DNA of 64,000 bases from an uncultured Hyphomicrobiales bacterium (GCA_964459765.1 CAYWNY010000003.1:12861-76860), one strand, 5' to 3'. Shown: positions 35,803-52,360, counted from the stretch's first letter. Made by a program: numbers and translations. The notes: generated by a model not told the origin, from the letters alone.

Positions 35803-35827
35803 GGAACCCAACAAAGCATTCGTCGTT
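35803..35827 (+). promoter_or_regulatory. EcfG-type general-stress promoter GGAAC-N16-CGTT
   Basis: GGAAC (35803-35807), then CCAACAAAGCATTCGT, then CGTT (35824-35827). It lies about 45 nt upstream of ATG 35874. Confidence 0.7.
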
Positions 35828-35873
35828 GATGTCGCGCACTTTCCAACCGCCCATCACCAACCAGGAGTTCAGG

Positions 35874-36130
35874 ATGAAGCCAATAAGTTCTCTACTGGTC
35901 GCGGCAGCACTTGGCGCCAGCGCCCTTGCAATCTCCCCGATCAGCGCATCCGCGGAGATTGTATGCACAGGCAACGTGTGTTGGCATACGCATGACCGAT
36001 ACGACTACCCGCCGGAAGCCAACGTCGTCGTGCACCCGATGACTGGCGTTGGGGTCCTAACGAGCACTTCGGCTGGCGCGAACATGAAGGCCGCGGCTAT
36101 TGGCGCGGTGATCGTTGGATGGAACACTAA
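35874..36130 (+). pseudogene. Small secreted Trp/Arg-rich protein, one frameshift (about 85 aa if repaired)
   Basis: An AGGAG RBS precedes the signal peptide MKPISSLLVAAALGASALAISPISASA. After ...EANVVVHP the plausible continuation DDWRWGPNEHFGWREHEGRGYWRGDRWMEH* lies in the -1 frame. The length of 257 nt is 3n-1, and the break is near 36038 (CCCG/GAT). Confidence 0.55.
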
Positions 36131-36261
36131 GCTTTCGCACTGCTCCGGCGTCGGCCGTCATGCCGACGCCGGCTGCCAGCAAGTGTTTTGCAAATCATTG
36201 TTATGATAGCGTGCGAGTTTTACAGAAAAGGTTGATCCTGAGCAAATTGGAGCATTGAGCC

Positions 36262-36462
36262 ATGGCCACGCGCCGAAAACCCAAATATTCGCCTTCCGCC
36301 GGAAAAGACGTCGAGCGCGAAATGCGCAAGTTCAACCGCGGCACGCTAAAAAGCGGCAAGGGTGGGAAGGGCGGCAAGGTCAACAACCGCAAGCAGGCGA
36401 TCGCTATCGCGTTGTCGGAAGCGCGCAAGGAAGGGAAACGCGTGCCAAATCCGAAAAGGTAA
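36262..36462 (+). CDS. Small basic protein (66 aa), DUF6496-like
   Basis: MATRRKPKYSPSAGKDVEREMRKFNRGTLKSGKGGKGGKVNNRKQAIAIALSEARKEG has the ...RKQAIAIALSEAR... core, which I recognise from a widespread small stress-associated protein family. The family name is given from memory. Confidence 0.6.
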   Translation: MATRRKPKYSPSAGKDVEREMRKFNRGTLKSGKGGKGGKVNNRKQAIAIALSEARKEGKRVPNPKR

Positions 36463-36519
36463 GCCAGCAAAGCGTCGGTCGGCGGCGTCAGTCAAACTCC
36501 GCCTGCCAGATGGAGACGT

Positions 36520-36780
36520 TTGATGACAAATCCACAAGCCCGGCGAGATGCGGACGCGCGCACCGAACTATCTACACACCAGGCAAGACAAGCCGTAACC
36601 GGTCATAATGTGCGCTACGTGCTCCGCTTCGGCACGGTCGCCGTGATCATTGCATTTGCCGCAAGTCTATCTGTCTTTTTTTGCTTGAATTTTCCGGCGC
36701 CTCTATTTTCCGACGCTCTTCTACTACCCCACGAAGGGCCCGCTCATGCGGGCCTTTTTAGGTCAGCGCGCTTAGCCTAG
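36520..36780 (+). CDS. Hypothetical small membrane protein
   Basis: The N-terminal part (ARQAVTGHNVRYVLRFGTVAVIIAFAASLSVFF) resembles short single-TM proteins of rhizobia. The C-terminal extent is uncertain. Confidence 0.4.
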   Translation: MMTNPQARRDADARTELSTHQARQAVTGHNVRYVLRFGTVAVIIAFAASLSVFFCLNFPAPLFSDALLLPHEGPAHAGLFRSARLA

Positions 36781-36894
36781 CGATGGTAGGCAGCGTGGCA
36801 GCCACCGTCGAGCGGGAGACAACACGAGGGCGACGTCCTCGTTCCGGCCCAGGGACAAGACGTGCGGCCCCTTTCGCAAATACGTGATTTGTTT

Positions 36895-36919
36895 GGAACT
36901 CGGTTCCACCGAGGGAGTT
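36895..36919 (+). promoter_or_regulatory. Near-canonical EcfG-type promoter GGAAC-N16-AGTT
   Basis: GGAAC (36895-36899), N16, then AGTT (36916-36919). It lies 38 nt upstream of the 28-codon ORF at 36957. Confidence 0.45.
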
Positions 36920-36956
36920 ATTTGATCGGCTTCGATATTCGATGATGGAGATGACA

Positions 36957-37043: not shown

Positions 37044-37095
37044 TCCTTCGGACCGGCAATCCGTCGAAAAGTCGAAAAGCAAGCTGGAGGCAACA

Positions 37096-37251
37096 ATGCT
37101 TGGCACTATTCTAATCGTTATTCTTGTTTTGCTCCTGGTTGGAGCATTGCCGACTTGGCCATATAGCGGCGCCTGGGGATATTATCCTTCGAGCGGGCTC
37201 GGATTGGTCGTCGTCGTCGTTCTGATCTTGGTCCTCGTCGGCAGAATCTAG
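37096..37251 (+). CDS. DUF3309-family small membrane protein (51 aa)
   Basis: MLGTILIVILVLLLVGALPTWPYSGAWGYYPSSGLGLVVVVVLILVLVGRI matches the DUF3309 pattern (LGALP.WP.S..WGY.PSGGLG). A GGAGG RBS precedes it. Confidence 0.8.
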   Translation: MLGTILIVILVLLLVGALPTWPYSGAWGYYPSSGLGLVVVVVLILVLVGRI

Positions 37252-37281
37252 CGCCGCGCGAGTCGGATCGAAAATCCGGAG

Positions 37282-37359: not shown

Positions 37360-37385
37360 GGAACCTTTTCTTTCACACTCACGTT
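37360..37385 (+). promoter_or_regulatory. EcfG-type general-stress promoter GGAAC-N17-CGTT
   Basis: GGAAC (37360-37364), then CTTTTCTTTCACACTCA, then CGTT (37382-37385). It lies 40 nt upstream of ATG 37425. Confidence 0.7.
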
Positions 37386-37424: not shown

Positions 37425-37610
37425 ATGGCCATGTTGGGATGGGCAGCTTTGTTTCTGATTATCGCCATAGTCGCCGGCGTCTTGGGTCTTGCCGGTATCG
37501 CGATTGTCTCGGTGGAAATCGCTAAGGCGATCTTCTTCGTCGCCATCATCTTGTTTCTGGTCTCGGCGGCGATCGGAATCGCTCGCGGGCGGTCGGTACG
37601 CGCGCCGTAA
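37425..37610 (+). CDS. UPF0391 / DUF1328 small membrane protein
   Basis: MAMLGWAALFLIIAIVAGVLGLAGIAIVSVEIAKAIFFVAIILFLVSAAIG is the typical YtjA/UPF0391 two-helix pattern. Confidence 0.85.
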   Translation: MAMLGWAALFLIIAIVAGVLGLAGIAIVSVEIAKAIFFVAIILFLVSAAIGIARGRSVRAP

Positions 37611-37656: not shown

Positions 37657-38226
37657 ATGGTTGATATGTCTGTGCATAGACCAACCGCGTTTGTGGCAGC
37701 GGCATGCGGCATTTGCCCGACGGGGCTAGCCCTCGTACTGGCCCTCCTAGTAGCGCCGCCGGCGCTTGAAACACACGCCGGCTGGTCGACGCTCGAAGCG
37801 GGACCCGCCGTCAACCGAGACCGCAAGGGTGATCGCCTCGCTGTCATGCATCAGCACAAAACCGCCGGGACGGAGATCGGACTCGGCGGACTCTTCGAAC
37901 TGTCGATCGGCCGGCATCCTGGCGATCTCCTCGCGGTATGGGACGCGGCCGGGCAATTGCGCTTTGTCGTGGACGCTCGCAGCGGCCTCACCGCCGTAAC
38001 CGAAACACCTTCACGAGCTGGGCTAGTGCCCGATCCATTCGATGAGCCTTCGCGTCCGCAAGGACCGCCGTCTCCGACGGTTCCCTTTGGCTGCGAGCCG
38101 CTCGCAAGTTCCTCGACAGATCCCCGCATCGCCGGCCTGACAGGAAAATGCATGTCGGACGCTGCAACCGGGCTTTATGCGGCGCTGTCCGGGCCTGAAA
38201 CGATCCATCAGCCCGCCTTCGATTGA
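37657..38226 (+). CDS. Hypothetical exported protein
   Basis: In-frame ATG within track ORF 37489..38226. The N-terminus is hydrophobic (TAFVAAACGICPTGLALVLALLVAPPALE). The codon third-position GC bias is consistent with coding. I cannot assign a family. Confidence 0.45.
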   Translation: MVDMSVHRPTAFVAAACGICPTGLALVLALLVAPPALETHAGWSTLEAGPAVNRDRKGDRLAVMHQHKTAGTEIGLGGLFELSIGRHPGDLLAVWDAAGQLRFVVDARSGLTAVTETPSRAGLVPDPFDEPSRPQGPPSPTVPFGCEPLASSSTDPRIAGLTGKCMSDAATGLYAALSGPETIHQPAFD

Positions 38227-38435
38227 AGGCGCGTCGAGAGCGTCGTTGCGACCGCCGCCACAGTTCTAAAACATTTAGTTCCCACATTGCGGCAGCAAAT
38301 CGGTGAGCAACCCGCCACCGATGCGCCGCCGCGAGATGATGCATGTTCCGGGACTTTGGTGTAGAAGTTCCCGCACGGGAACAGAACGTTATTTTATCGC
38401 CAGGTTCCCGGCCGGCACGCCCCCGATACCGGAAG

Positions 38436-40357: not shown

Positions 40358-40364
40358 TGGCGGG

Positions 40365-41480
40365 CTACTTCGTCGCCGAATCCCAGTCGGCAAAGCCCGG
40401 TTCTTCGACGCGCGCGACATGCTGGTAAACGGTTGTGGCGATGAGAAGGATCGGCGTAGCCAAAAGCGTTCCGAGCGGTCCCCACAGCCAGGTCCAAAAC
40501 GCAATCGAGAGAAATATCGCCAACGGGCTGAGCGTCAATCGGCGACCGATCACGCTCGGCGTGATGAACTGGCCCTCAAGCGTGTTGACGGCCACGATCA
40601 GCGCCGGCGCCAGCAACGCCTGGGCCAATGTCGGGAGCACGACCAACCCGACCACGAACACCAGCGTGACCACGGCGGCCGGTCCCAAATACGGTACGTA
40701 ATTGAACAAGAACGCGGCGGCGCCAAATAGCAGCGGATTCGGCAGGCCAACCAGATAGGCGACGGCGGCGGTAACCAAGCCGACGCAGAGGTTGATGACC
40801 GTGACCACCGCGACATATTGCGCCAGGTTTTGCTCGATGGCCGTGAACAACCGCAGCGCCGTCAACCGCGCCTCCGATCTTTCGAACAGCAACGCAACGA
40901 AATGTCTCTGGCTTTTCAGCGATAGCAGGAAAAAGAACAAGCCGACGAAAAACAAAATGACGCCGCCCAAAGCCGGGGTCAGAAATTGAACCAGAAAACC
41001 TATCGTGCTGCTCGTCGACGGCTCTATTCGCAGCGACGTCGCCGAGCCACTGCCCAACATGGTCGCGAAGCCGTTCTGCACACCCTGAATTGTCGCGATC
41101 AGCGGTTGGAGAAAGGCAGCCTTGCTCTTCAAGGCAGCGCCGATTTCCGGAATCCTGCCCGCGCCGTAGCTCAAGGCATCACCGAGCACGACAAACAAGG
41201 CGTTGAGCGCGACCAGCACCAAACCTAGGCAAGCGAGCACAAACAGCGGGCGTGGAACGCGGTAGCGCTCGGCGAGCGCCGCCAGCGGCCCGAACATATT
41301 GGCGACGATGGCGGCAGCGACAATCGGCGCGATTACGGCGCGGGCAAAATAAAGCAGAGCGCACAACAGCAGACAAAAAATGCCGATTGTCGCAACCCGG
41401 GAGGTGTTAACGAGCAAGTTGCCGCGGCCGGACATCGGCACGGACACGGGCACTGGCTCCAACGTACGCAAGCGCTGCAT
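40365..41480 (-). CDS. AI-2E family transporter (PerM/UPF0118)
   Basis: The ATG at 41480 gives MQRLRT.... It has about 8 TM helices and a conserved C-terminal block (FLFNYVPYLGP...EGQFITPSVIGRRLTLSPLAIFLSIAFWTWLWGPLG). Confidence 0.88.
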   Translation of the reverse strand: MQRLRTLEPVPVSVPMSGRGNLLVNTSRVATIGIFCLLLCALLYFARAVIAPIVAAAIVANMFGPLAALAERYRVPRPLFVLACLGLVLVALNALFVVLGDALSYGAGRIPEIGAALKSKAAFLQPLIATIQGVQNGFATMLGSGSATSLRIEPSTSSTIGFLVQFLTPALGGVILFFVGLFFFLLSLKSQRHFVALLFERSEARLTALRLFTAIEQNLAQYVAVVTVINLCVGLVTAAVAYLVGLPNPLLFGAAAFLFNYVPYLGPAAVVTLVFVVGLVVLPTLAQALLAPALIVAVNTLEGQFITPSVIGRRLTLSPLAIFLSIAFWTWLWGPLGTLLATPILLIATTVYQHVARVEEPGFADWDSATK

Positions 41481-41659
41481 ATGATATCCCCCGGCGCCGA
41501 CTGCCTCCAAACATCATCCTTCTGACAAGGAAGTGACCGGCGACTGTTATTAGAACGAGCGATGTTCGATTCGGTTTCAGACCGGCCGGCGGCCGGCCTC
41601 ACTTGTGCGTTATCGCCGACACATTTGCAGATTAGTTGCAATCGAATTGGGCCCGCGCG

Positions 41660-42049
41660 TCAGAGCCCATCGGTCGCGATGCCGAACGCGACTAGCGACG
41701 CGCGCAGCGTCGAGAACTGATAGGGCTTGGAAAGGACGGAGAGCTTCTCATAACGAGCGAGCTCGGCTGCGGCCGTCTCGGCAGACTGTCCGGATGCGAC
41801 GATGATCGGCAGATCGCGCCGCATTTGCTTAAGCTCGACGACTAAGTCGGCTCCGTCGCGGTCCGGCAGACCGAGATCGACGATCGCGATCTCGAAGTCC
41901 GAAATCTCGGCCGCCGCCAACGCCAATGCCCGCGAAGCCGACGGCGCTTCCGCAACCTCGAAACCCATTTCACGCAGAGCGTCCGCGGCAAACATCGCCA
42001 CGAGCGCTTCGTCCTCCACCAAAAGGGCGTATGGGCATCCGTTGCGCAT
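41660..42049 (-). CDS. Single-domain response regulator (receiver only)
   Basis: The sequence runs MRNGCPYALLVEDEALVAMF...AIVDLGLPDRDGADL...SKPY and is 129 aa. An exact EcfG promoter lies about 115 nt upstream. Confidence 0.85.
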   Translation of the reverse strand: MRNGCPYALLVEDEALVAMFAADALREMGFEVAEAPSASRALALAAAEISDFEIAIVDLGLPDRDGADLVVELKQMRRDLPIIVASGQSAETAAAELARYEKLSVLSKPYQFSTLRASLVAFGIATDGL

Positions 42050-42169: not shown

Positions 42170-42194
42170 AACGCCTAAAGTTCCGCTCGGTTCC
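42170..42194 (-). promoter_or_regulatory. EcfG-type general-stress promoter (minus strand) GGAAC-N16-CGTT
   Basis: The plus strand reads AACG (42170-42173), N16, GTTCC (42190-42194). It faces the receiver gene 41660..42049. Confidence 0.65.
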
Positions 42195-42218
42195 GGGTCG
42201 CAAATCAGCGCGCGGACC

Positions 42219-42244
42219 GGAACCAAGGCGCCGGCCGGCGCGTT
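42219..42244 (+). promoter_or_regulatory. EcfG-type general-stress promoter GGAAC-N17-CGTT
   Basis: GGAAC (42219-42223), then CAAGGCGCCGGCCGGCG, then CGTT (42241-42244). It sits back-to-back with the minus-strand promoter 25 nt away. Confidence 0.7.
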
Positions 42245-42249: not shown

Positions 42250-42333
42250 ATTGTCCGACTGCACCTCCCCCCTCGCCCCCCGTGCGCAGTCGGGAAGAGA
42301 GGCGCTGCCTGCAGGCAGCGCCTCTTTGTCTTT
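42250..42333 (+). ncRNA. Candidate EcfG-dependent small RNA with C-rich loop (GsrN-like), copy 1
   Basis: The unit starts about 6-8 nt after the promoter -10. Stem CCGACTGC (42255-42262) pairs with GCAGTCGG (42286-42293) around the 23-nt loop ACCTCCCCCCTCGCCCCCCGTGC. A 12-bp terminator hairpin AGAGGCGCTGCC-TGCA-GGCAGCGCCTCT (42298-42325) and TTGTCTTT follow. The only ORF across it is the non-native N-terminal extension of track ORF 42251..42622, whose real product is CsbD from ATG 42422. Confidence 0.5.
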
Positions 42334-42421
42334 GGCGGCGGCCCGTTGCGCAACTCGGAACCCCTCGCGCATCCCGTTGTTTAAACCGGGTGAAGGCAAC
42401 TTTACCCGGGGACAAAAGACC

Positions 42422-42622
42422 ATGAACTGGGATCGCATCGAAGGAAATTGGAAGCAGTTGAAGGGTCGCGCGCAGCAAAAGTGGGGCAAGCTCACCGACG
42501 ATGACATCAACGTCATCGAGGGCAACCGCACCGAGCTGTCCGGGCGCCTGCAAAATCGTTACGGCATCGCCAAGGATGAAGCCGAACGTCAGATCGACAC
42601 GTGGATGAAATCCATCGGCTGA
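42422..42622 (+). CDS. CsbD-family general stress protein
   Basis: MNWDRIEGNWKQLKGRAQQKWGKLTDDDINVIEGNRTELSGRLQNRYGIAKDEAERQID is a canonical CsbD repeat pattern. The product is 66 aa. Confidence 0.92.
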   Translation: MNWDRIEGNWKQLKGRAQQKWGKLTDDDINVIEGNRTELSGRLQNRYGIAKDEAERQIDTWMKSIG

Positions 42623-42663: not shown

Positions 42664-43464
42664 TTATGCCGTGGCGCGACGCTTCTTGTTGCTGGCATTC
42701 TGTTCGAAAAAGAGGACCTGACTTATCAGCGCCGACACCGCGGCGGGCTGATAAGGCTTGGCGATCAGGAACGCGGGCTCCGGTCGCTCGCCGGTCAGAA
42801 ACCGCTCCGGATAAGCGGTAATGAAGATAACCGGCACCTCAAAACGATGGAGCATCTCGTTGACGGCATCGAGGCCGGAACTGCCGTCCGCCAACTGGAT
42901 ATCGGCGAGGATCAGGCCCGGGCGTTTTTGCGCCGCCAATTTCAACGCGTCATTTCTCGTACGCGCCACGCCTACAACGCGGTGACCCAGGCTTTCAGCC
43001 AGTGACTCGAGATCAAGGGAGATAAGAGCTTCGTCCTCGATGATGAGCACATCGGTCGCGATCTGATCGGCAAGCTCGCGGCCGAACTGATCGATGAGCG
43101 CGCGCAGCGTGGTGACGTCAACGTCGAGGATACGGGTGGCCGACTCTTCTCCGAACATTTCCAGCGAAGTCAGCAAAAACGCCTGCCTCGGCAGCGCGCT
43201 GATTTGCGCAAGACGCCGCTCAGGCGGAAAGGTAGCGGCGTCACGGGCCTCCGCATTGAGCGGAACCGAATTCCAGATCCGCGTGAAAGTGCGGAACATG
43301 TCCACGCGAGTGTCGCCGTCTGCACTGACGAGGGTAGGCTGTTTGACCACGGCTTCCAGCGTGGCCGCTACGTAGGCATCGCCGGATTCCTGACTGCCGG
43401 TCAGCGCTCTGGCGTAACGGCGCAGGGCTGGAAGATGGCCTCTAACCGACTGAGCTAATTGCAT
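42664..43464 (-). CDS. phyR: Anti-anti-sigma response regulator PhyR (sigma-like domain + receiver)
   Basis: 266 aa. The N-terminal ECF-sigma-like region (LPALRRYARALTGSQESGDAYVAATLE...LPRQAFLLTSLEMF) is followed by a receiver (VLIIEDEALI...ILADIQLADGSSG...KPY). It is divergent from nepR. Confidence 0.95.
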   Translation of the reverse strand: MQLAQSVRGHLPALRRYARALTGSQESGDAYVAATLEAVVKQPTLVSADGDTRVDMFRTFTRIWNSVPLNAEARDAATFPPERRLAQISALPRQAFLLTSLEMFGEESATRILDVDVTTLRALIDQFGRELADQIATDVLIIEDEALISLDLESLAESLGHRVVGVARTRNDALKLAAQKRPGLILADIQLADGSSGLDAVNEMLHRFEVPVIFITAYPERFLTGERPEPAFLIAKPYQPAAVSALISQVLFFEQNASNKKRRATA

Positions 43465-43509: not shown

Positions 43510-43534
43510 AACGCCTCCGTTGAAAAAAAGTTCC
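43510..43534 (-). promoter_or_regulatory. EcfG-type promoter of phyR (minus strand) GGAAC-N16-CGTT
   Basis: The plus strand reads AACG (43510-43513), then CCTCCGTTGAAAAAAA, then GTTCC (43530-43534). It lies about 45 nt upstream of the phyR ATG at 43464. Confidence 0.75.
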
Positions 43535-43603
43535 GGTGCCGGAGGAACTATTTGTTTTGGCTGGCTTTCTCCAATACCCAGAAACAAGTATAAGCCATAT
43601 GCC

Positions 43604-43831
43604 ATGGCAGACCAGGGGGAGTTGTTGAAGAAGCCGCAAAGGCGTGCCGCGATCGCACAAGCGGCCGTCCGGGACGCGAAGGGGCGCTTGGGGCCGGAAA
43701 TTCAAAATAAGATCGGTCAACATTTGCGTGGCCTCTATTCCGACATCGTCGACCAAGGCGTGCCCAACCGTTTCGCGGAGCTTTTACGCGACTTGGACGA
43801 TTCGGACCTGGACAAGCCGAAGCCGGAATAG
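43604..43831 (+). CDS. nepR: Anti-sigma factor NepR
   Basis: The ATG at 43604 gives a 75-aa product with the NepR core IGQHLRGLYSDIVDQGVPNRFAELLRDL. It is divergent from phyR. Confidence 0.88.
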   Translation: MADQGELLKKPQRRAAIAQAAVRDAKGRLGPEIQNKIGQHLRGLYSDIVDQGVPNRFAELLRDLDDSDLDKPKPE

Positions 43832-43939
43832 CCGTCGAGTACCCGGCTCTTGCCGGGCCGTTGCGCGACCAGCAAAGCCGTCGGTGCTAGCCCGCGGTCG
43901 TTCGGCCGCCAGTTTATCGAAACGTCGATAAGCCCTGGC

Positions 43940-43964
43940 GGAACGAGTGGACCAATTGGCCGTT
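43940..43964 (+). promoter_or_regulatory. EcfG-type general-stress promoter GGAAC-N16-CGTT
   Basis: GGAAC (43940-43944), then GAGTGGACCAATTGGC, then CGTT (43961-43964). It lies about 285 nt upstream of the HWE kinase ATG at 44252. Confidence 0.65.
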
Positions 43965-44251
43965 TGACCCATAGAGAACCGATCACCACACCAGGCGGGG
44001 ACCTCAAGAATGCTCCGGCCTTTAAATCGGCTACCGACTGTCGCACCGGACTCGACCTCAAACGTTGACGCCTCTGTTGCTTTGCTTAGGCCAAATGATG
44101 GACGTCCGTGTGCCGCCGGGGCGCCCATTGTTTAATTTCGAAGCCTTTTTCGTCGCGAACCTTTCGCTCATTTAATGAGCGAACGGACGTCCCGTACGGC
44201 GACCATGCTACAATAAGAGGTGGCGGCACAGTCCGTAGTGGGGAGAGCACC

Positions 44252-45253
44252 ATGGCAAGCGATCTTCAACGGATTGAGGCAACAGCGTTGCTCGCGGCCA
44301 TCGTGAAATTTTCTCACGACGCCATCGTCAGCAAAGATTTGAACGGCATTGTGACGTCGTGGAACGCCGGAGCCGCCCGAATGTTCGGCTATGCCAGCGA
44401 GGAGATCGTCGGCCGCTCGATCCTGACGATCATACCGCCGGATCGCCACAGCGAAGAAAGCTATATTCTGGATCAGGCCAGGGCGGGAAAAACCATCGAG
44501 AACTACGACACCGTGCGGGTGCGCAAGGATGGCGGGCAATTGCACGTATCGCTGTGCATATCGCCGATACTGGGCGATGACGGAAGAATTCTCGGTATTT
44601 CTAAGATTGCGCGCGACATTACCGGCCTGAAGATCGCGCAGCAGACACAGAATCTTTTGCTGCGGGAGCTGAACCACCGTTCGAAAAATCTGCTGGCGGT
44701 TGCCGATGCCATCCTGCGGCAGACGGCCAAAAACACGCCGCCGCAAGAACTGGTCAGCCGGGTCAGCCGGCGATTCCAGGCGCTGTCGGTCAATCAGGAT
44801 CTGCTGATCGATAAAGATTGGCGGGGCGTCGAACTTGAACACGTCGTTCGGTCGCAGCTTGCCGCATTGATCGACGATGCCGGCGCGCGTCTAGCTGTCG
44901 GCGGTCCGACGATCGTCCTCACTCCAGCCGCGGCGCAGGCCATCGGGCTCGCCATTTTCGAACTCGCCAGCAATGCGCTCAAATTCGGCTCACTTTCGGC
45001 TCCGCACGGGCGTGTCGACGTCGATTGGCGCGTGTCGGGCGAAAGCCAAACCGAGGAGCTGGTCTTGAGCTGGCGGGAATCGGGCGGTCCGCGCATCAAA
45101 GCCCCCAAGCACAAAGGGTTCGGAAGCACCGTTATTGAGGGCATGGTCGCCCGCTCGCTGGTTGGCCGTGCGTCGGTCGACTACGCCCCCACCGGCATCG
45201 TGTGGCAGCTGGTCGCGCCGACGGCGTCATTGCTCGGCGCCGAAGTCGCTTAG
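44252..45253 (+). CDS. PAS-domain HWE/HisKA2-family histidine kinase (PhyK-like candidate)
   Basis: The ATG at 44252 has a GGGAGA RBS. The PAS domain (IVSKDLNGIVTSWNAGAARMFGY) is followed by the H-box ELNHRSKNLLAV typical of HWE/HisKA2 kinases and a degenerate ATPase (KHKGFGSTVI). The product is 333 aa. Confidence 0.85.
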   Translation: MASDLQRIEATALLAAIVKFSHDAIVSKDLNGIVTSWNAGAARMFGYASEEIVGRSILTIIPPDRHSEESYILDQARAGKTIENYDTVRVRKDGGQLHVSLCISPILGDDGRILGISKIARDITGLKIAQQTQNLLLRELNHRSKNLLAVADAILRQTAKNTPPQELVSRVSRRFQALSVNQDLLIDKDWRGVELEHVVRSQLAALIDDAGARLAVGGPTIVLTPAAAQAIGLAIFELASNALKFGSLSAPHGRVDVDWRVSGESQTEELVLSWRESGGPRIKAPKHKGFGSTVIEGMVARSLVGRASVDYAPTGIVWQLVAPTASLLGAEVA

Positions 45254-45296: not shown

Positions 45297-46064
45297 CTAT
45301 TCTGCTGCCTCGGCAATAGGGTAGACCCCGTGCAGAACTTTTTCGAAATGGTCCGCAACCGACGCGTTACAGCGGCATGCACGCGCCTTAAGCATGTCGG
45401 GCTTACGAACGACCAAAGCGCCGCGGCGCGTCTCCAAAATGCCGCCCGCCTTGAAGGTCTGGATGATGCGGCTGGCGTAGCTGCGTCCGACCCCCAATAA
45501 CGTCGCCAGTTGTTCCTGCGTAATTGGAACGACGTCATCGCCGGTTCGATCGAGCGCGGAGATGATCCATTTCGCCGTGCGCTGCTCGATGGAATGGATT
45601 GCGTTGCAGGCGGTCGACTGAAACACCTGCGCTAAGAGGCAGTCGGCGTAGCGGGCAAACAATGCCCGCAATGAGGGGGATTTTAACTTTGCAGCCTCGA
45701 GGTGGCGGATGCTAAGCCGTACAAACGGGCCTTTGCCCTTTGCCACGATCCTGCAATAGGCCGGCAGATTGCCGCAACTGACAATACCTCCGACCGCGCC
45801 CTCGCGGCCGACCAGTGTCACCTCCACATCGTTTCCGTCATCGCTGGTGACAAGGAATGCCGCCAGACTGGCGGCGCAAGGAAAGTAGACCACCTCGACA
45901 TCGTCGCCTGGATGATAAAGCAACGTATCGGCGGCGGCCTCCATGGCGACGAGGTTTGCGCCAAGAAGCTCATAATCCTCTTCGCGCAAGGCGTTCAGGA
46001 GGTTGTTGTTCGGGCGGTGGATCGCCGTAGTTTGCTGCCACCGCGAATATCGTGGCTCGTCCAA
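45297..46064 (-). CDS. Crp/Fnr-family transcriptional regulator
   Basis: 255 aa with a cNMP-binding-like barrel and the C-terminal HTH ITQEQLATLLGVGRSYASRIIQ. Confidence 0.82.
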   Translation of the reverse strand: MDEPRYSRWQQTTAIHRPNNNLLNALREEDYELLGANLVAMEAAADTLLYHPGDDVEVVYFPCAASLAAFLVTSDDGNDVEVTLVGREGAVGGIVSCGNLPAYCRIVAKGKGPFVRLSIRHLEAAKLKSPSLRALFARYADCLLAQVFQSTACNAIHSIEQRTAKWIISALDRTGDDVVPITQEQLATLLGVGRSYASRIIQTFKAGGILETRRGALVVRKPDMLKARACRCNASVADHFEKVLHGVYPIAEAAE

Positions 46065-46217
46065 GACGGTCTCACAATCAATTGAAACTACGAGGTGGGT
46101 CGCTTCTGTCCACTAGTGAACGGACAACACTCGCCCGTTGTGATTGGTTCCATTGTGTGGAACCCAAACCCTCAGGAGCCGCATCATGCGAACCACGAAA
46201 CCGAACGATGTTAAAAT

Positions 46218-46616
46218 TTGATCCTCGCGGGCGGCGCCGGATTTTGTCTCGTGACCGAAGAACCTGAGATACCAAGGGACGTGCTGCTCGTTGAAGACAA
46301 CGCCCTTATTGCGCTCAATACCGAGGACATGCTGAGGGAAATCGGTGTCGTCAGTGTTCGTGTTGCCGGCACCGTCGCTTTGGCATTAGCGGCGATTGAA
46401 GAGGAAGGGTTGCCGAATTTTGCGCTTTTGGATGTCTATCTAGGCGGCGAAAGCGCCGTGGAGATTGCTTATCGCCTGTTCAAAGAAGGTGTGCCGTTCG
46501 CATTCGCCACCGGAATTGGCGGAGCCGCCGATCTTCCCGCGAAGTTCGCCCAGGTACGGATATTGCGAAAGCCCTATACCATCGACATGCTACGGACGGC
46601 GTTGTTGGAGCATTGA
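46218..46616 (+). CDS. Single-domain response regulator of the PFxFATG (FAT GUY, SdrG-like) family
   Basis: The receiver runs VLLVEDNALIAL...ALLDVYLGGES...VPFAFATGIG...LRKPY. The PFAFATG motif matches the PFXFATG[G/Y] signature described for SdrG. The start codon is uncertain. Confidence 0.8.
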   Translation: MILAGGAGFCLVTEEPEIPRDVLLVEDNALIALNTEDMLREIGVVSVRVAGTVALALAAIEEEGLPNFALLDVYLGGESAVEIAYRLFKEGVPFAFATGIGGAADLPAKFAQVRILRKPYTIDMLRTALLEH

Positions 46617-46635: not shown

Positions 46636-47609
46636 TCAACGCGACGTCGCTACCTGCAAGTTGTCCAGTCGCATATGCTGCTCGTCGCTCAATCCCTGTT
46701 GCAGCCCCGCCAACGCTACCTCGATAGCCTCGACCGCGCGCCAACTAGCGTCGAGGCGGCTCGTGATCGCATCGAGACGCGCTAAAGCCGTGGCCGGTAT
46801 CGCACCGGCGCAGTATCCATCAAATTCGCGCGCAGCGCGTTGGAAGGCATCCTGAACGGTCGCGAACGCCGCTTGCTGAGCTTCGGTGGGCTGCACCGCT
46901 CGCGAGAGCTGTGCAAGCGGCTCGTTCACCAGCTCGGCGCTCAGCTTGCAGTCCGCTGCCGCCTTGGACGTGGCGGCGCCCGGCGCCGGTCCATCAAGCT
47001 GCGCGCGTTGTTTGCTGTCCAAGGAGTCGGCAAACTCCTGCAGGGTTGGGCGCACCAAGCCGAGCGCCATGATGGTTGCGTCGATCTCGCGATCCATGAG
47101 CTGTAAGCGCTCGACCGGATGCGCCGGTATTTTGTCCGGACACGACTTGATCAGAAGTCCGTTCGCTTGCCCAAGCGCGGTCCCCAGCTTTTGCAGCGCC
47201 GGACTTTGAGCGGCGGTAGGCATCGTCTCGCGCGCGATGCGCGCGACAGTTTCCTCCGTCGCGATACGATCCAGGCACAGGTTTGATGTCCGTTCGTCGG
47301 GCGCGTGTTTGCCGAAGGCTTGGTCCAAAATGTCTTGGTACCCAAACGGCCATGGCGCGGACGCCTTCGGCCGAAAGATATTGTCATAAAGCGAAGGCAG
47401 GGCCAGTACGGGGTAAAGCAACGTCGGCGCACGGTTCTCTGTTGTCAGCGATGGCTCCGATGGCGCGCTGCGCCCGCCGCGGAAACCGGGTACCGGCAAA
47501 GAAAAATGCAATGGCCCAAAGTTTAAGCCGAGTGCGCTTGCCCTAGGTGGGGCGCGAGGGCGGCAAGCACTAGCGCAACGACGCCTATGCGGGCGGTGAC
47601 AGGTAGCAT
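46636..47609 (-). pseudogene. Periplasmic LTXXQ-motif (Spy/CpxP-like) protein, one frameshift after the signal peptide
   Basis: The ATG at 47609 gives MLPVTARIGVVALVLAALAPHLGQAHSA, then a stop at 47523-47525. The body with repeated xxxxQ motifs (LDSKQ, PTEAQ, LSDEQ) continues in another frame (track ORF 46636..47643). The length is 3n-1. An exact EcfG promoter lies about 40 nt upstream of the signal-peptide ATG. Confidence 0.65.
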
Positions 47610-47646: not shown

Positions 47647-47671
47647 AACGCACCCGCCAGACTAAGGTTCC
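47647..47671 (-). promoter_or_regulatory. EcfG-type general-stress promoter (minus strand) GGAAC-N16-CGTT
   Basis: The plus strand reads AACG (47647-47650), then CACCCGCCAGACTAAG, then GTTCC (47667-47671). Confidence 0.7.
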
Positions 47672-47728: not shown

Positions 47729-49216
47729 TTACGCCGCTGAAGCCGGGTCAAGCGGACGGAAACCTGTTGCTTGCGCGGGCCGCATTTCGGCAGCCGCCGG
47801 TATTGCTATTGAGCGGGCTTCATCTCCCCGCAAGGCGGCCAAAAACTCCTGTTGCCATCGATTCACATCATAATCGGAAATCACGGCAAGCAGCGCCCGA
47901 TGGCGGCTTTGCCGTTCATCGAGCGACATCGCAAGCGCCCGCGCCATCGCGCCGGCGACCGACTCGGCATCATACGGGTTGACCAGTAATGCCTGTCGCA
48001 TCGCCGTCGCGGCGCCGGCGAAACGCGACAGAATGAGTACGCCTGGGTCGTCGGGATCCTGTGCGGCGACATACTCTTTCGCGACGAGGTTCATGCCGTC
48101 GCGCAGCGGCGTCACCAGGCCAACGCGAGCGGTGCGGTAGAGCCCGGCCAGCGCGGAGCGGCTGTAGACACGATTGATGTAGCGGATCGGTGTCCACGAT
48201 ACTTCGCCGTATTTGCCGTTGATGCGCCCGGCGGCCGAACCGGCATCCAATTCCAGTTCGGCATATTCGGGAATCTCCGATCGGTTCTTTGGAGTGATCT
48301 GCAGATAGGTGACCTTGCCGACCCAGTCAGGATGGTTGGCCAGGAACAGATCGAAGGCCTCAAAGCGCTGGATGAGGCCTTTGGAATAATCGAGACGGTC
48401 AACGCCGATCATCAGGGACCGATCGCCGAGGCTGGCAACAAGCTCCTGCACCAGCGGCGACCGCACGTTGCGCCGGGCCAGCCGCGCGAATGTGCGCGGC
48501 TCGATGCCGACGGGGAATGTCCCGATTTGTGTCTGCTTGCCGTTCAGTCGCAAGGTGATCTGGCCGCCGGCGGTTTCGAACACACGCGCCTGCTGCGCGT
48601 CACACTCGGACAACAAGTAGCGGACGAAATTTTCGGAATCGCTGTTCGTCTGGAAACCAACAACGTCGTAATCCAAAAGCAGCGGAATGAGATGGTCGTG
48701 GTTCGGCAGCGAGGTCAAAATCTCGGGCGCCGCCAAAGGCGTATGCAGGAAGAAACCGATACGATTGCAGTGGCCCCGCCGTCGTAACGCAGCGGCGAGC
48801 GGGATCATGTGGTAATCGTGCACCCAGATGATGTCATCTTCCAGAATAACCTTCTCAAGTTCGCTCGCGAAATGCTCGTTGACTCGGAAATAGCCGCTGA
48901 GATCGCGGCGCGCGAACTCGGCAAGATCGAGCCGATAATGCAGGATCGGCCACAGCACGCGATTGGCAAAGCCGTTGTAATATTCCTGATAGTCGTCCTT
49001 CATGAGATCGGTGACGACGTACTCCACATTCTTGTAAGTGACGGATCGCGTCTCTAGTTGGTCGGCGGCCGCCGCCACCTTGCCGCTCCAGCCAAGCCAG
49101 ACGCCGCCGTTGCGCTGCAAGGTCGGGCGCAACGCCACTTCGAGCCCGCCGGCGCGTTTGGAACCGTCGCCGGCCGGAACTGAAACGCGATTGGAGACAA
49201 CGACTAGTCGTGCCAA
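47729..49216 (-). CDS. otsA: Alpha,alpha-trehalose-phosphate synthase OtsA
   Basis: The GT20 family sequence runs LVVVSNRVSVP...GGLEVAL...WVHDYHMIPLA...YRTARVGLVTPLRDGMNLVAKEY. The proposed TTG start at 49216 overlaps the GH15 stop by 13 nt. The track ORF extends to 49429 inside the upstream gene. Confidence 0.9.
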   Translation of the reverse strand: MARLVVVSNRVSVPAGDGSKRAGGLEVALRPTLQRNGGVWLGWSGKVAAAADQLETRSVTYKNVEYVVTDLMKDDYQEYYNGFANRVLWPILHYRLDLAEFARRDLSGYFRVNEHFASELEKVILEDDIIWVHDYHMIPLAAALRRRGHCNRIGFFLHTPLAAPEILTSLPNHDHLIPLLLDYDVVGFQTNSDSENFVRYLLSECDAQQARVFETAGGQITLRLNGKQTQIGTFPVGIEPRTFARLARRNVRSPLVQELVASLGDRSLMIGVDRLDYSKGLIQRFEAFDLFLANHPDWVGKVTYLQITPKNRSEIPEYAELELDAGSAAGRINGKYGEVSWTPIRYINRVYSRSALAGLYRTARVGLVTPLRDGMNLVAKEYVAAQDPDDPGVLILSRFAGAATAMRQALLVNPYDAESVAGAMARALAMSLDERQSRHRALLAVISDYDVNRWQQEFLAALRGDEARSIAIPAAAEMRPAQATGFRPLDPASAA

Positions 49217-51003
49217 TGCCGATCCTCCCAACTTCGCGATAGCCGCATCGCCGTCAAGATCAGGCCGGCCATCGAGTAAGTTTGCGGAAAATTGCCGCAC
49301 AGTTCGCCGGTTTGGGGGTCCACATCTTCCGAAAGCAATCCGTAGCGATTGCGATACCGCAGCGCGTCGTCGAACATTTCGATCGCCTCTTCGCGCCGGC
49401 CGAGCTTCCACCAAACATCGATCAGCCAAAACCTGCAGATCAGAAAGGCAGCCTCCGGCTCGCCAAAGTCATCCTTGGCCACGTAACGCATAACGTGCTT
49501 GCCGCGTAAAAGTTCACCTTCGATTGCTTCGACGGTGCGGACAAAGCGCGGATCGTCCACATCCACCAGGCCGATTTCAGGCAACAACAGAACGCTGGCG
49601 TCGAGATCGTCGGACCCGATCGCCGCGGTAAAAGCGCCGCGTGTCTCGCTCCAAGTCTGCTCGAGCAATCGGGCCTGCATGGCGTTGGCGACGCTCTTCC
49701 ACTCGGCGGCGCGCTCTTTCAGACCGAGGTGCCTGGCGATCGCTGCCAGCCGGCTGCATGCCGCCCAGCACATCGCAGCCGAATGCGTATGCACGCGCAT
49801 GCGGCCGCGATACTCCCAGATGCCAGCGTCCGGCTCGAACGCCAACCGTTTGGCGATCTCACCGAGATGCTCAAGGAGCTGAAACAGGCCGGCGTCGCCC
49901 GGCCGCGGCAGACGGCGATCGAAGAACATCGGCATCGCGGCTAGAATGATGCTGCCGTAAGTGTCGTGCTGGTGCATATCAGCGGCCGCGTTGCCGACAC
50001 GCACCGGACCGTCGCCGCGATATCCTTTGAGCTTTAGAGCGATCTCTTCGTTCATGTCGTCCGTCGGGACGATAGAATACACCGGACGCACCGGATCTTC
50101 GGTGGCGATGCCAAGGATGAAGGAGATGAAGTCTTCCATCGTCTGCGTGGCGCCGAGTCTATTAAGCGCCTTGACGACAAAATACGCGTCACGCAGCCAA
50201 CAAAAGCGATAGTCCCAGGTGCGCCCGGAGCGCGGAGATTCTGGAATCGAGGTCGTGTGCGCGGCTATAACCGCGCCGGTTTCCTCGAAGTTGCTAAGCT
50301 TGAGCGTGATTGCCGCGCGGATGATAACGTCCTGCCAATCGTAGGCGATCGACAGGCGGCGCACCCATTCGGTCCAGTAATTGCGCGTGCGGTCGGCGAA
50401 TTCCCGGCAGGTCGTCGCCAGATCGGCAGGGAAAGGCTCGTCGGGCCCGATCACCAGATAAACCGGCCGCGTGAGCACGAATGGCGCCTCGCGGTCGATG
50501 TAGGACAATGGCGCGTCAGTGGTCAGACGGACGACGAGATTAGGGCCGCGGAAGGTAACGTGATTACTGCCAATCGACTTGGATCGAATTGGCACCCCGT
50601 AACGATTCGTCGGTCGAAAGCGTATCGTTATTCGTGGCGTTCCAGCGACCGGCTCGATGATGCGAACCAGCTGCGGCGGACGGAATACGCGATCGTAGAT
50701 GCGAAAGCGCGGCGCGAAGTCGGTGATTTTGACGGCGGCTGATTTGCCGTCGACGAGCGTCGTCGAAACGACCGCGGTATTGCGCTCATAATCGGACGAA
50801 AAGTCGACCATGCCGTCCAATACGACGTCGCAGAATCCTTTTTCTTCGTCGCCTGCCAGCAGGCGGGAAAAAACCGGATCGTTGTCGAAGCGCTGAAAAC
50901 ACCACCAGACGATTCGCGAAGACGGCTCCAGCAGAGCTGCGGTGCGCCCGTTACCAATGAGAGCGAGATCGAGCCCGAAATCGTTCTTGGCTTGATGCTT
51001 CAT
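49204..51003 (-). CDS. Glycoside hydrolase family 15 protein (glucoamylase/trehalase-like)
   Basis: 599 aa. The N-terminal beta-sandwich (LIGNGRTAALLEPSSRIVWWCFQRFD) and the (alpha/alpha)6 catalytic domain (WDYRFCWLRDA, GIWEYRG) fit GH15. It is embedded between otsB and otsA with 4-nt and 13-nt overlaps. Confidence 0.88.
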   Translation of the reverse strand: MKHQAKNDFGLDLALIGNGRTAALLEPSSRIVWWCFQRFDNDPVFSRLLAGDEEKGFCDVVLDGMVDFSSDYERNTAVVSTTLVDGKSAAVKITDFAPRFRIYDRVFRPPQLVRIIEPVAGTPRITIRFRPTNRYGVPIRSKSIGSNHVTFRGPNLVVRLTTDAPLSYIDREAPFVLTRPVYLVIGPDEPFPADLATTCREFADRTRNYWTEWVRRLSIAYDWQDVIIRAAITLKLSNFEETGAVIAAHTTSIPESPRSGRTWDYRFCWLRDAYFVVKALNRLGATQTMEDFISFILGIATEDPVRPVYSIVPTDDMNEEIALKLKGYRGDGPVRVGNAAADMHQHDTYGSIILAAMPMFFDRRLPRPGDAGLFQLLEHLGEIAKRLAFEPDAGIWEYRGRMRVHTHSAAMCWAACSRLAAIARHLGLKERAAEWKSVANAMQARLLEQTWSETRGAFTAAIGSDDLDASVLLLPEIGLVDVDDPRFVRTVEAIEGELLRGKHVMRYVAKDDFGEPEAAFLICRFWLIDVWWKLGRREEAIEMFDDALRYRNRYGLLSEDVDPQTGELCGNFPQTYSMAGLILTAMRLSRSWEDRHWHD

Positions 51004-51716
51004 TCATCTGCATCCAGCGCGGCCAGCCATTCGCGGACCTCGGCCGGAGAACCGAACATGCCGGTGGCGCCCGTCATGAACCGTTCCACCGAATAGCCGA
51101 TGCCGCCATAGGCCGGTAATTCCGCAAACACCGTCTCGTCGGTGACGTCGTCGCCGATGAAAATCGGCTTGCGACTAGCGAAAGGCGGATTCGTCATCAA
51201 CTCGCGGACGGCGGTGCCCTTGGAAAAGCGCCTCGACTTGATCTCGATCACCGCTTTGCCCTCCATAAGCTCGAGATCTTCAGTTTGACTGACGATCGTG
51301 GCGATTTTGGACTTGAGCGGCTTCTCCATTTCCGGCGCCAGCCGATAGTGAATCGCCAGCGACGCGCCTTTGTTCTCGACGAATATCCGTGGATCGGCAG
51401 ACGCCACCGCGGCCACTTGTCGGCGACAGTCTTGCCCGATCAGTTCGGCATGGCGCGAACGCGTGCGTCCGTTGCCGGCGAACCGAATTTGAGCTCCATG
51501 ACCGCCGATCGCGGGAAGCCTCAGCGGCGCAAACAGGCGGTCGACATTCGCGATGACGCGTCCGCTTACGAAAGCGACGGCGCCGCCGCTCTTGACGTAC
51601 AATCGTTCAAGCGAGCTAAGCAGCGAGTCCGGCACAACCACGCTTCTCGGGGTGGCCGCCGTGTCCAATATTGTGCCGTCGACATCCAGCAATAATGCGA
51701 TCGATGAAAGGTCCAT
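51000..51716 (-). CDS. otsB: Trehalose-6-phosphate phosphatase OtsB
   Basis: The ATG at 51716 gives MDLSSIALLLDVDGTILD (HAD motif I DxDGT). Later HAD motifs include GDDVTDE. It overlaps the GH15 start by 4 nt. Confidence 0.88.
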   Translation of the reverse strand: MDLSSIALLLDVDGTILDTAATPRSVVVPDSLLSSLERLYVKSGGAVAFVSGRVIANVDRLFAPLRLPAIGGHGAQIRFAGNGRTRSRHAELIGQDCRRQVAAVASADPRIFVENKGASLAIHYRLAPEMEKPLKSKIATIVSQTEDLELMEGKAVIEIKSRRFSKGTAVRELMTNPPFASRKPIFIGDDVTDETVFAELPAYGGIGYSVERFMTGATGMFGSPAEVREWLAALDADE

Positions 51717-51824
51717 CGATTGCGGCGGCGGGAATACATCAGGCGGCGGCGCATGACGACAACTTTGTTGGGGCAAATTTCGTCACCGTGGGGCCGTGGT
51801 GGAGGGTCTAGCGACCAACACCTC

Positions 51825-51849
51825 AACGCGCCGCCACCGGAAAAGTTCC
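51825..51849 (-). promoter_or_regulatory. EcfG-type promoter of the otsB-GH15-otsA operon (minus strand) GGAAC-N16-CGTT
   Basis: The plus strand reads AACG (51825-51828), then CGCCGCCACCGGAAAA, then GTTCC (51845-51849). It lies about 110 nt upstream of the otsB ATG at 51716. Confidence 0.7.
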
Positions 51850-51894
51850 ACGCAAGTTCCGAGGGCGCAGCTCGCACCACGTCGCGCCCGCCGA

Positions 51895-52269
51895 TTAACT
51901 CGCAGCGAAGGCAACCGTGGAGAGAAGCGCGAGCTCGGCGCGGCGGGAATCGAGCCTCGTATGCTGCACGACAATGGGCATGTCCGATTCGAATACCGAG
52001 GCATAATCGGTATCGCGAGGCATCGGCTGCGGGTCGGTCAGATCGTTGAACCGCAGATGCAAGGTTCGGCGCGCCGCGACCGTCACAAGATACGGTCCCA
52101 CCGGCTCGCGGTCCGCGAAATAGATTGTGATCACGACTTTGGCGTCGCGGTCGCCAGCATTGAGGATGCACGCGGTCTCGTGCGACTCCAACGCGCGATC
52201 CGCATGTTTGCTTTCAGAGGGAATGTAACCCTCCGCGATCGCCCAGCGCGTTCGTCCGATGGCAGCCAT
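51895..52269 (-). CDS. Sensory-rhodopsin-transducer-like protein (ASRT family)
   Basis: 124 aa. GRTRWAIAEGYIP...SHETACILNAGDRDAKVVITIYFADREPVGPY...RRTLHLRFNDL...PIVVQHTRLDSRRAELALLST closely follows the Anabaena ASRT sequence pattern as I recall it. Confidence 0.8.
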   Translation of the reverse strand: MAAIGRTRWAIAEGYIPSESKHADRALESHETACILNAGDRDAKVVITIYFADREPVGPYLVTVAARRTLHLRFNDLTDPQPMPRDTDYASVFESDMPIVVQHTRLDSRRAELALLSTVAFAAS

Positions 52270-52294
52270 TGGCAGGATTTAGCCTTCCGAGCCA

Positions 52295-52319
52295 AACGCG
52301 CCACGGGCGGTGCGGTTCC
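52295..52319 (-). promoter_or_regulatory. EcfG-type promoter of the ASRT-like gene (minus strand) GGAAC-N16-CGTT
   Basis: The plus strand reads AACG (52295-52298), then CGCCACGGGCGGTGCG, then GTTCC (52315-52319). It lies about 26 nt upstream of ATG 52269. Confidence 0.7.
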
Positions 52320-52334
52320 CTTAATTGCATTTGC

Positions 52335-52360
52335 GGAACTTTTGCTCGCGCTCACGCGTC
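52335..52360 (+). promoter_or_regulatory. Near-canonical EcfG-type promoter GGAAC-N17-CGTC
   Basis: GGAAC (52335-52339), N17, then CGTC (52357-52360). It sits back-to-back with the ASRT promoter and faces the debranching-enzyme-like gene about 200 nt away. Confidence 0.35.

Follow-up and report, generated by a model that had tools for sequence, protein, structure and literature searches.

The window analysed here, a 64-kb stretch of DNA from an uncultured Hyphomicrobiales bacterium (GCA_964459765.1, CAYWNY010000003.1:12861-76860), very probably carries between 35.8 and 60.7 kb a chromosomal island for the general stress response (GSR), centred on PhyR-NepR and belonging to an uncultured Xanthobacteraceae-related alphaproteobacterium, with ten promoters predicted to be of the EcfG type. 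[quoted passage not shown] Its promoter density is unusual, but in essence the island is an ordinary case of the known EcfG regulon.

Promoter motifs in the window

The whole window was scanned on both strands for the motif GGAAC-N16/17-CGTT, which gave 11 exact matches, compared with 1.20 expected from 100 dinucleotide-preserving shuffles (standard deviation 1.17, largest 6); none of the 100 shuffles reaches 11. The first-pass annotation, made by eye from the sequence, had put the chance figure at about one match per 64 kb. A second control leaves the real sequence untouched and permutes the letters within each box; among 360 such composition-matched permutations the true motif ranks first, with 11 matches where the mean is 1.26 and the runner-up has 8. 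All 11 matches are confined to the island, and there are none in the first 35.8 kb of the window.

The distribution of the matches relative to genes was assessed on a map drawn from codon usage, in which 84.6% of the window is coding and around 15% intergenic. The count of genic and intergenic hits that had been proposed as a check places 10 of the 11 exact matches between genes (binomial P ~7e-8), and each of these points at a gene or a small RNA: for nine, a start codon in the same orientation follows after 25-287 nt, within the 20-290 nt claimed for them, and the tenth, at 60638, faces a small RNA composed of a hairpin and a terminator. The GGAAC -35 box and the CGTT -10 box, 16-17 nt apart, are those of sigma(EcfG)/ECF15 promoters (ECF, extracytoplasmic function), and the earlier assignment to EcfG agrees in spacing and in CGTT with the published consensus, GAAC-N16,17-C/GGTT (PMC4814048).

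The ten sites of the first-pass annotation are all real and exact, with correct coordinates and strands; what its list missed is the eleventh exact match, at 57897..57921 (+), antisense to, and within, a gene for a GT4 glycosyltransferase (57538-58407). We rejected this match as a promoter, as it is not positionally conserved in the related contig L008, whose GT4 site is on the sense strand and at a different codon position, and it is most likely the roughly one match expected by chance. An origin of the ten sites in a repeat element was also rejected; their flanks are only 26-28% identical to one another, and they are therefore not copies of a repeat.

Conservation of the promoter boxes

Contigs of sister species cover nine of the ten sites, all except 60638. 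These are L165 (PhyR 93% identical to that of the window), L175 (ASRT 93%) and L179 (LTXXQ protein 89%); the label "sister species" for L165 and L175 rests on the 93% identity of PhyR and ASRT. All nine covered sites are exact at the orthologous position and in the same orientation in these contigs, and the spacers have diverged. A set of 12 orthologous sites was scored, the same 12 throughout, of which L165 gives nine (exact or near) and L175 three. In the boxes 106 of 108 positions (98%) are identical, compared with 112 of 146 positions (77%) in the equal-length spacers (Fisher P = 2.5e-7). At the level of sequence comparison this contrast indicates purifying selection on the boxes specifically, and this selective conservation speaks for continued use of the promoters themselves. 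No footprinting power came from the six strain-level contigs (L169-L174), whose identity to the window is 99.9-100%. PhyR scans of genome and metagenome contigs gave relatives 61-70% identical among the matches listed, and the closer relatives were reached through the protein database and look-ups of exact proteins.

Upstream motifs were also surveyed around 164 more distant phyR loci, where an exact or near motif falls in around 8% of random 310-nt windows. DUF1328 homologues have one in 30 of 31 loci (22 exact, 8 near), AI-2E transporter homologues in 14 of 15 (5 exact, 9 near) and CsbD homologues in 14 of 20 (9 exact, 5 near); upstream of the PhyR homologues themselves, 99 of the 164 loci have an exact motif and a further 15 a near one. 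The neighbourhoods of phyR are motif-enriched in general, with 437 matches over 2.07 Mb (0.21 per kb), against around 0.019 per kb by chance in the window. Within 10 kb either side of phyR the window has nine exact sites, while the 60 loci that fully cover this span have a mean of 3.25 and a maximum of 8; L165 has 8 matches in 11.4 kb. The island stands at the top of a continuous distribution of density and is no different kind of thing.

The phyR-nepR hub and the predicted targets of the promoters

The gene identifications made at first pass (PhyR, NepR, PAS-HWE kinase, receiver, CsbD, DUF1328, LTXXQ, OtsB, GH15, OtsA and ASRT) are confirmed by Pfam, which is also the source of the further family assignments given below. 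At the centre of the island lie three elements of a partner-switch locus: a PhyR with sigma-like and receiver domains, a divergent nepR and a nearby kinase of the HWE/HisKA2 type. The phyR gene (42664-43464, -; PhyR_sigma2 at 86 bits, PhyR_sigma-like and Response_reg) encodes the anti-anti-sigma factor, and nepR (43604-43831, +; NepR at 48 bits) the anti-sigma factor. An exact N16 promoter at 43510..43534 (-), 45 nt before the phyR ATG and exact in L165 too, serves as an internal positive control for the scan. The candidate nepR promoter, GGAAC-N16-CTTT at 43544..43568 (+), lies 35 nt upstream of its gene and has a degenerate -10 box. Between nepR and the PAS-HWE histidine kinase gene (44252-45253, +; PAS and HWE_HK) are 420 nt of non-coding DNA (43832-44251), which hold an exact N16 site at 43940..43964 (+); this is also exact in L165, with 4 of 16 spacer positions changed. 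It leaves the kinase gene with a leader of 287 nt (43965-44251), which is unusually long and only partly conserved in L165; no convincing open reading frame (ORF) or structured RNA was identified in this leader.

On the far side of phyR, an exact N16 site at 42170..42194 (-) precedes the gene for a single-domain receiver (41660-42049, -) and has an equally exact counterpart in L165, there with an N17 spacer. The AI-2E family transporter gene (40365-41510, -) is probably served by this site too. Back to back with it, the exact N17 site at 42219..42244 (+), exact with an N16 spacer in L165, lies before the first of two small RNA copies. The adjoining csbD gene (ATG at around 42422, end at 42622, +) has a near site of its own about 40 nt upstream, GGAAC-N16-TGTT at 42357..42381 (+), which is an exact CGTT site in L165.

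Further to the left, the exact N16 site at 35803..35827 (+) stands 46 nt before a small ORF with a signal peptide, predicted to be secreted (35874-36206, +), which is followed by a DUF6496 gene (36262-36462, +); the orthologous site in L165, at 9856(-), is exact with 5 of 16 spacer changes. A near site on the minus strand at 36821, GGAAC-N16-TGTT, is an exact CGTT site in L165. Another, GGAAC-N16-AGTT at 36895..36919 (+), lies 176 nt upstream of a DUF3309 gene (37096-37251, +), and its AGTT box is kept in L165 at 8747(-). The exact N17 site at 37360..37385 (+), which is exact in L165 too, precedes the DUF1328 (UPF0391) gene (37425-37610, +) and probably also serves a conserved ORF at 37693-38226. 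A site with a spacer one base under the usual range, GGAAC-N15-CGTT, is found at 38385-38408 (-), between this ORF and the gene for a CHASE3 hybrid kinase (ending at 40357, +); it faces a weak ORF at 37747-37956.

To the right of the hub, a near site at 46126..46151 (-), GGAAC-N17-TGTT, lies 61 nt upstream of a gene for a Crp-like regulator (45297-46064, -), whose homologues in the Pseudolabrys contigs L166 and L167 have an exact site upstream; a receiver-like protein is encoded next to it at 46218-46616 (+). The gene for a Spy/CpxP-like LTXXQ protein (46636-47609, -) has an exact N16 site at 47647..47671 (-), 37 nt before its ATG at 47609, and the L179 site is exact with 5 of 16 spacer changes. 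The trehalose operon otsB-GH15-otsA (51716 down to 47729) is preceded by an exact N16 site at 51825..51849 (-), and the ASRT gene by another at 52295..52319 (-), 25 nt upstream of its start. Divergent from the latter, a near site GGAAC-N17-CGTC at 52335..52360 (+) faces a split gene of the glycogen-debranching type (GDE; 52563-54784, +) with GDE_N_bis and MGH1-like domains. At 58745..58769 (+), a near site GGAAC-N16-CGTC lies 92 nt upstream of an ABC transporter gene (58862-60616), whose orthologue in L008 has a similar CGTC site upstream at 12861(-). Last, the exact N16 site at 60638..60662 (+) precedes the second small RNA copy and is outside the coverage of the sister contigs.

The near matches at 36895 (AGTT), 52335 and 58745 (both CGTC) had been reported before and are all present, and four more are added to them here: 42357(+), 36821(-) and 46126(-), all with TGTT, and 43544(+) with CTTT. 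Three pairs of promoters stand back to back and diverge, their -35 boxes separated by 9-24 nt. They pair the receiver with small RNA 1 (42170-42244), phyR with nepR (43510-43568), and ASRT with GDE (52295-52360).

Two predicted GsrN-like small RNAs

Two of the exact promoters face predicted small RNAs of the same architecture, around 85-90 nt long. Copy 1 (42250..42336, +) consists of a 5' hairpin with a C-rich loop of around 23 nt, CCUCCCCCCUCGCCCCCC, followed by a G+C-rich terminator hairpin and a U tract; copy 2 (60668..60750, +) is built in the same way, with the loop UCCUUCCCGCCUCAGCCCCCC. Both fold stably, at -41.9 kcal/mol (z = -4.5) for copy 1 and -41.3 kcal/mol (z = -4.8) for copy 2, and the body of copy 1 is nearly identical in L165. 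A covariance model built from the two window copies and six relatives scores copy 1 at 68.5 bits and copy 2 at 33.5 bits (E = 2.4e-5). With this model a copy is found in 43 of 80 genome loci, where it lies on the opposite strand just downstream of phyR. The family extends over Xanthobacteraceae, Rhodoplanes, Bradyrhizobium, Afipia and Tardiphaga, and lies around 100-900 nt past phyR in most of them. GGAAC stands at -35 in 44 of 45 family matches (E below ~1e-3, the two window copies counted in), and the -10 box varies among CGTT, GGTT, GCTT, CGTC and AGTC. Compensatory changes occur at all 21 of the modelled pairs, and 89% of cells are paired compared with 30-42% when the partners are slid, in an alignment fitted to the model, which favours the structure.

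[quoted passage not shown] Both copies have the upstream site and the 5' hairpin with a C-rich loop; copy 1, around 330 nt from the phyR stop codon, also lies close to phyR, and copy 2 is 17 kb away from it. The likeness to GsrN of Caulobacter crescentus and to the GsrN-like RNAs comprises the EcfG-type promoter, the intrinsic terminator, the exposed cytosine-rich 5' loop with six tandem C residues and, for copy 1, the position at the GSR locus. The present RNAs differ in occurring as two copies, the second 17 kb from phyR, and the likeness is one of promoter, position and structure. BLASTn matches of the Caulobacter GsrN are confined to the Caulobacteraceae. The GsrN-like RNAs of R. palustris and B. 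diazoefficiens are predictions made on the above features with no data behind them, and such RNAs have been predicted in Rhizobiaceae too (PMC5869019).

Rfam at its gathering thresholds gave nothing in the window, and a permissive scan returned only chance-level matches for copy 1. Copy 2 (60661-60748, +) has a full-length match to BjrC68 (RF02353), a small RNA of Bradyrhizobiaceae, that is below threshold, at 17.3 bits against a cut-off of 39 (E ~0.02). No BjrC68 match was obtained for copy 1 or for the phyR-adjacent copy of L038, the one Bradyrhizobium locus scanned for it, and BjrC68 was not found in seven related phyR loci (six Bradyrhizobium and one Rhodoplanes). Because the copy 2 match is weak and the related loci lack BjrC68, the small RNAs were not filed under that family; the phyR-adjacent family is one that Rfam does not hold.

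The ASRT-trehalose module

A module of trehalose genes with a gene for an ASRT-like protein also recurs in other genomes. OtsB (51000-51716, -; Trehalose_PPase, 108 bits), a GH15 enzyme (49204-51003, -) and OtsA (47729-49216, -; Glyco_transf_20, the GT20 synthase, 404 bits) are encoded in that order, and the ASRT gene (51895-52269, -; PF07100, 182 bits against a cut-off of 25) lies directly upstream. Here and in six related contigs this gene stands directly ahead of either otsB-GH15-otsA or GT4-GDE-otsB, and the module has ECF-type promoters in six lineages. The promoter lying between the ASRT gene and the trehalose operon has an exact match in the window, L175, L179, L178 and L008, and its -10 box reads GGTT in L177 and CGAT in L176. 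In the promoter of the ASRT gene itself, the GGAAC box keeps a constant distance from the ATG in the window, L175-L179 and L008, and the CGTT box occurs only in the window, L175 and L179; the last of these contigs has exact sites upstream of ASRT, otsB and LTXXQ alike. The divergent site, GGAACTTTT...CGTC/CGTA, is conserved in L175-L179, where it faces a gene for a Zn-dependent alcohol dehydrogenase (Zn-ADH).

In B. diazoefficiens, EcfG controls the otsA and otsB genes for the synthesis of trehalose (PMC8092242). ASRT-like proteins have been predicted to be sugar sensors tied to sugar-metabolism operons, with an amylase linkage in Sinorhizobium (De Souza, Iyer and Aravind 2009, PMC2739507); trehalose is not mentioned in that paper, and none of the papers listed in a search of the GSR literature mentions the transducer. 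With the control of trehalose by EcfG already published and these papers silent on its link with ASRT, the connection between ASRT, trehalose and the GSR is an incremental new lead. The protein described here resembles the standalone sugar-binding proteins of PMC2739507 in being a standalone PF07100 domain beside sugar-metabolism genes; it differs in that these are trehalose genes and in having an ECF-type promoter of its own. No rhodopsin domain was found by Pfam among the ORFs scanned across the window, and the partnership of the Anabaena type is thus not seen there.

The missing ecfG and alternative readings

Several observations count against reading the island as a working EcfG regulon. 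No EcfG-like ORF was found in the 64-kb window (tblastn with the Bradyrhizobium EcfG, best E = 0.34), and no ecfG within around 5-9 kb past its right end on the contigs that reach there, while nepR and ecfG are adjacent in 78 of 80 related phyR loci. The -10 box of the nepR promoter is degenerate, with CTTT in the window. That of the ASRT promoter is CATT in L176, L177 and L178 and AATT in L008, and among HWE-kinase homologues elsewhere an exact promoter of their own was found in 0 of 61. A simple terminator scan did not flag the terminators of the small RNAs; we attribute this to greedy stem extension eating part of the T tract, and the evidence for the terminators was taken from ViennaRNA folds and covariation instead. 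Finally, the disrupted GDE gene, the secreted ORF and one LTXXQ allele could belong to a part of the regulon that is decaying.

The lack of ecfG is shared with related contigs. Of the 80 loci only two depart from the adjacent arrangement, namely L008, whose synteny with the window is the greatest, and a truncated contig; the sister contig L165 also has no ecfG. In the Pseudolabrys contigs L166 and L167, whose PhyR is 73% identical, the order is Crp, HWE kinase, ecfG, nepR, phyR, which is the order of the window plus ecfG; nothing recognisable as an ecfG remnant was found between nepR and the kinase gene of the window. The same Pseudolabrys genome has a second nepR-ecfG pair 3 kb away, which makes paralogous sigma genes located elsewhere plausible. 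The simplest reading of this synteny is that ecfG was lost from the canonical locus and that a paralogue elsewhere would supply the sigma factor, whose identity we infer, the window being without ecfG. The CTTT box upstream of nepR is also present in L165, and the promoter has an exact CGTT in L008, L166 and L168; CTTT may represent a weakened negative feedback in the lineage that is without ecfG. A comparable arrangement is known from M. extorquens AM1, which has no ecfG at its phyR locus, was called an exception among the Alphaproteobacteria, and has a fully functional GSR (PMC4814048). It resembles the window in having phyR and nepR together without ecfG and in a consensus that also fits; it belongs to another lineage, and by the synteny with L166 the window resembles the canonical locus minus ecfG.

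The decay among the target genes is of several kinds. The GDE gene is broken by a stop codon in frame and by a frameshift, both present in each of the six independent strain assemblies; L008 and L175 have it intact, at 734-740 amino acids (aa). In the secreted ORF the frame shifts at ...VVVHP/DDWRW... relative to the intact 85-aa protein of L165. In the LTXXQ gene, a 1-nt deletion near 47530, just past the signal peptide, is present in the window and in L169, L171, L172 and L174; the frame is restored by an extra G in L170 and L173, and P0241 and P0242, close homologues of 323-324 aa, are unbroken. As the frame is intact in some strains, this frameshift is a polymorphism within the population. 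A Gly/Tyr-rich secreted gene is decayed in the window (36540-36845, -), where it is faced by the near site 36821(-), and is intact in L165 (8876-9106) with an exact promoter. Two further genes are absent from the window: an ElaB/DUF883-like gene, found in L165 between the receiver and AI-2E genes, and the Zn-ADH gene, which precedes GDE in L175-L179.

These losses raise the alternative that the island is a decaying remnant, in which the loss of ecfG ended much of the GSR control and the motifs persist only through recent divergence from the sister species. The absence of ecfG here, in L165 and in L008, the CTTT box of nepR, the GDE pseudogene with the frameshifts in the secreted ORF and LTXXQ, and the loss of three genes (Gly/Tyr-rich secreted, ElaB-like and Zn-ADH) relative to L165, L175 and L179 would all fit such a history. 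The contrast between boxes and spacers, however, points to purifying selection on the boxes, and PhyR, NepR, the kinase, OtsA, OtsB and ASRT are all intact. The M. extorquens GSR works without ecfG at the phyR locus (PMC4814048), and the second nepR-ecfG pair of L166 makes a sigma paralogue elsewhere plausible. On balance we consider a remnant unlikely.

Many ECF groups have GGAAC and CGT-type boxes in common, and the motif might be read by another ECF sigma factor of similar AAC/CGT specificity, of which the island would then be the regulon; no sigma gene in the window settles the question. Yet the same motif precedes phyR both here and in most related loci with an adjacent ecfG, and the targets belong to the classical EcfG families, namely CsbD, DUF1328, otsA/otsB and a GsrN-like small RNA. 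With the 16-17 nt spacing and the CGTT box fitting the published EcfG consensus (PMC4814048) as well, a sigma factor of another group appears very improbable. That the matches are chance or composition artefacts of G+C-rich intergenic DNA, for which the chance-like site at 57897 and the expectation of around 1.2 matches could be cited, is refuted by the shuffles, the permuted motifs, the intergenic bias and the conservation of the sites at orthologous positions in other genomes, and retains practically no credibility.

Surroundings and source of the island

The first 35 kb of the window hold kdp, sulfate assimilation and other housekeeping genes, among which the Pfam scan found no ECF sigma factor, and the island is bordered on the left by a dihydroxy-acid / 6-phosphogluconate dehydratase gene (33733-35679, -). 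An unusual fusion of Ribosomal_S30AE, a ribosome hibernation factor, with a C-terminal cold-shock domain is encoded at 30806-31384 (-) and has no EcfG-type motif upstream. To the right of the GDE gene, PRC-barrel, MFS, GT4 and ABC transporter genes occupy 55666-60616. No tRNA or tmRNA genes were found in the window (ARAGORN). The right-hand genes of the window are common to two contigs, L180 and L181, which are then fully different past an APH gene (right of around 63.6 kb), L180 continuing with a large TPR/Trans_reg_C regulator gene and L181 with cytochrome oxidase genes. The difference reflects either structural variation at strain level or a misassembly.

The exact PhyR and ASRT proteins are also present on contigs of several independent metagenome assemblies, 99.9-100% identical to the window. 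As they were traced only to metagenome contigs, the organism is uncultured. PhyR is up to 73% identical in the organism's nearest named relatives among the matches listed, which are Pseudolabrys and Xanthobacteraceae metagenome-assembled genomes.

A model of the island and its implications

We propose that stress would be sensed by kinases of the HWE/HisKA2 type, here the PAS-HWE kinase, with a possible part for the CHASE3 hybrid kinase and the receivers as well. The kinases would phosphorylate PhyR, and phosphorylated PhyR would sequester NepR and free an EcfG-type (ECF15) sigma factor, which must be encoded outside the window. RNA polymerase with this sigma factor is predicted to initiate at the ten GGAAC-N16/17-CGTT promoters and probably at around six weaker variants, and transcription of the targets is presumed from these sites. 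The predicted outputs are of several kinds. Positive autoregulation would act on phyR, the kinase gene and the receiver gene. CsbD, DUF1328, DUF3309, DUF6496 and the secreted peptide would be made as small envelope or membrane stress proteins, and the LTXXQ protein as a periplasmic chaperone. Trehalose would be synthesised through OtsB and OtsA, with the GH15 enzyme and the ASRT-like protein, which is predicted to bind sugar. The two GsrN-like small RNAs may act through their C-rich loops, which are partly anti-Shine-Dalgarno and could pair with G-rich or Shine-Dalgarno mRNA leaders; their targets are, like the sigma factor, a matter of prediction.

Among the closest known systems is the PhyR-NepR-sigma(EcfG) general stress regulon of Bradyrhizobium diazoefficiens, reportedly described by Gourion in 2009. 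The island shares with it the promoter consensus, a phyR that is divergent from nepR and, here by prediction, autoregulated, the control of otsA and otsB by EcfG (Ledermann 2021, PMC8092242), likewise predicted here, and the small RNA family, which the covariance model places near phyR in Bradyrhizobium loci. It differs in that nepR has no ecfG behind it, in that otsB is tied to the GH15 and ASRT-like genes and not to an otsC transporter gene, and in the nine exact sites that lie within 10 kb either side of phyR.

The proposal of the first-pass annotation that this neighbourhood is a local GSR regulon is supported by the boxes conserved in sister contigs and by the membership of both small RNA copies in a structured family. 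Its placing of trehalose synthesis, the ASRT-like protein and tiny membrane proteins under PhyR-NepR control also finds support, as far as comparative sequence analysis can provide it, and the trehalose part is already published for Bradyrhizobium (PMC8092242). Much more tentatively, we suggest that these features may form one whole: a PhyR-NepR hub that has shed its linked sigma gene, with a large share of the regulon packed around it, a duplicated GsrN-like RNA of a widespread family outside Rfam, and a conserved ASRT-otsB-GH15-otsA module in which ASRT might act as a sensor of trehalose or trehalose-6-phosphate that tunes trehalose metabolism under stress. We regard this combination as possible, though doubtful as a whole.

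The core claim fits the textbook model of the GSR and does not overturn current understanding. What the analysis provides is a comparatively validated GSR promoter map for an uncultured group of soil bacteria, obtained without experiment, together with three side leads. The hub without ecfG is a second natural case, after Methylobacterium, of phyR-nepR uncoupled from ecfG. The phyR-adjacent small RNA family outside Rfam fits the GsrN-like RNAs, which in 2018 were no more than predictions, and offers a lead across Xanthobacteraceae, Rhodoplanes and Bradyrhizobium. The conserved linkage of ASRT with trehalose genes suggests a concrete function for the ASRT-like family outside Anabaena.

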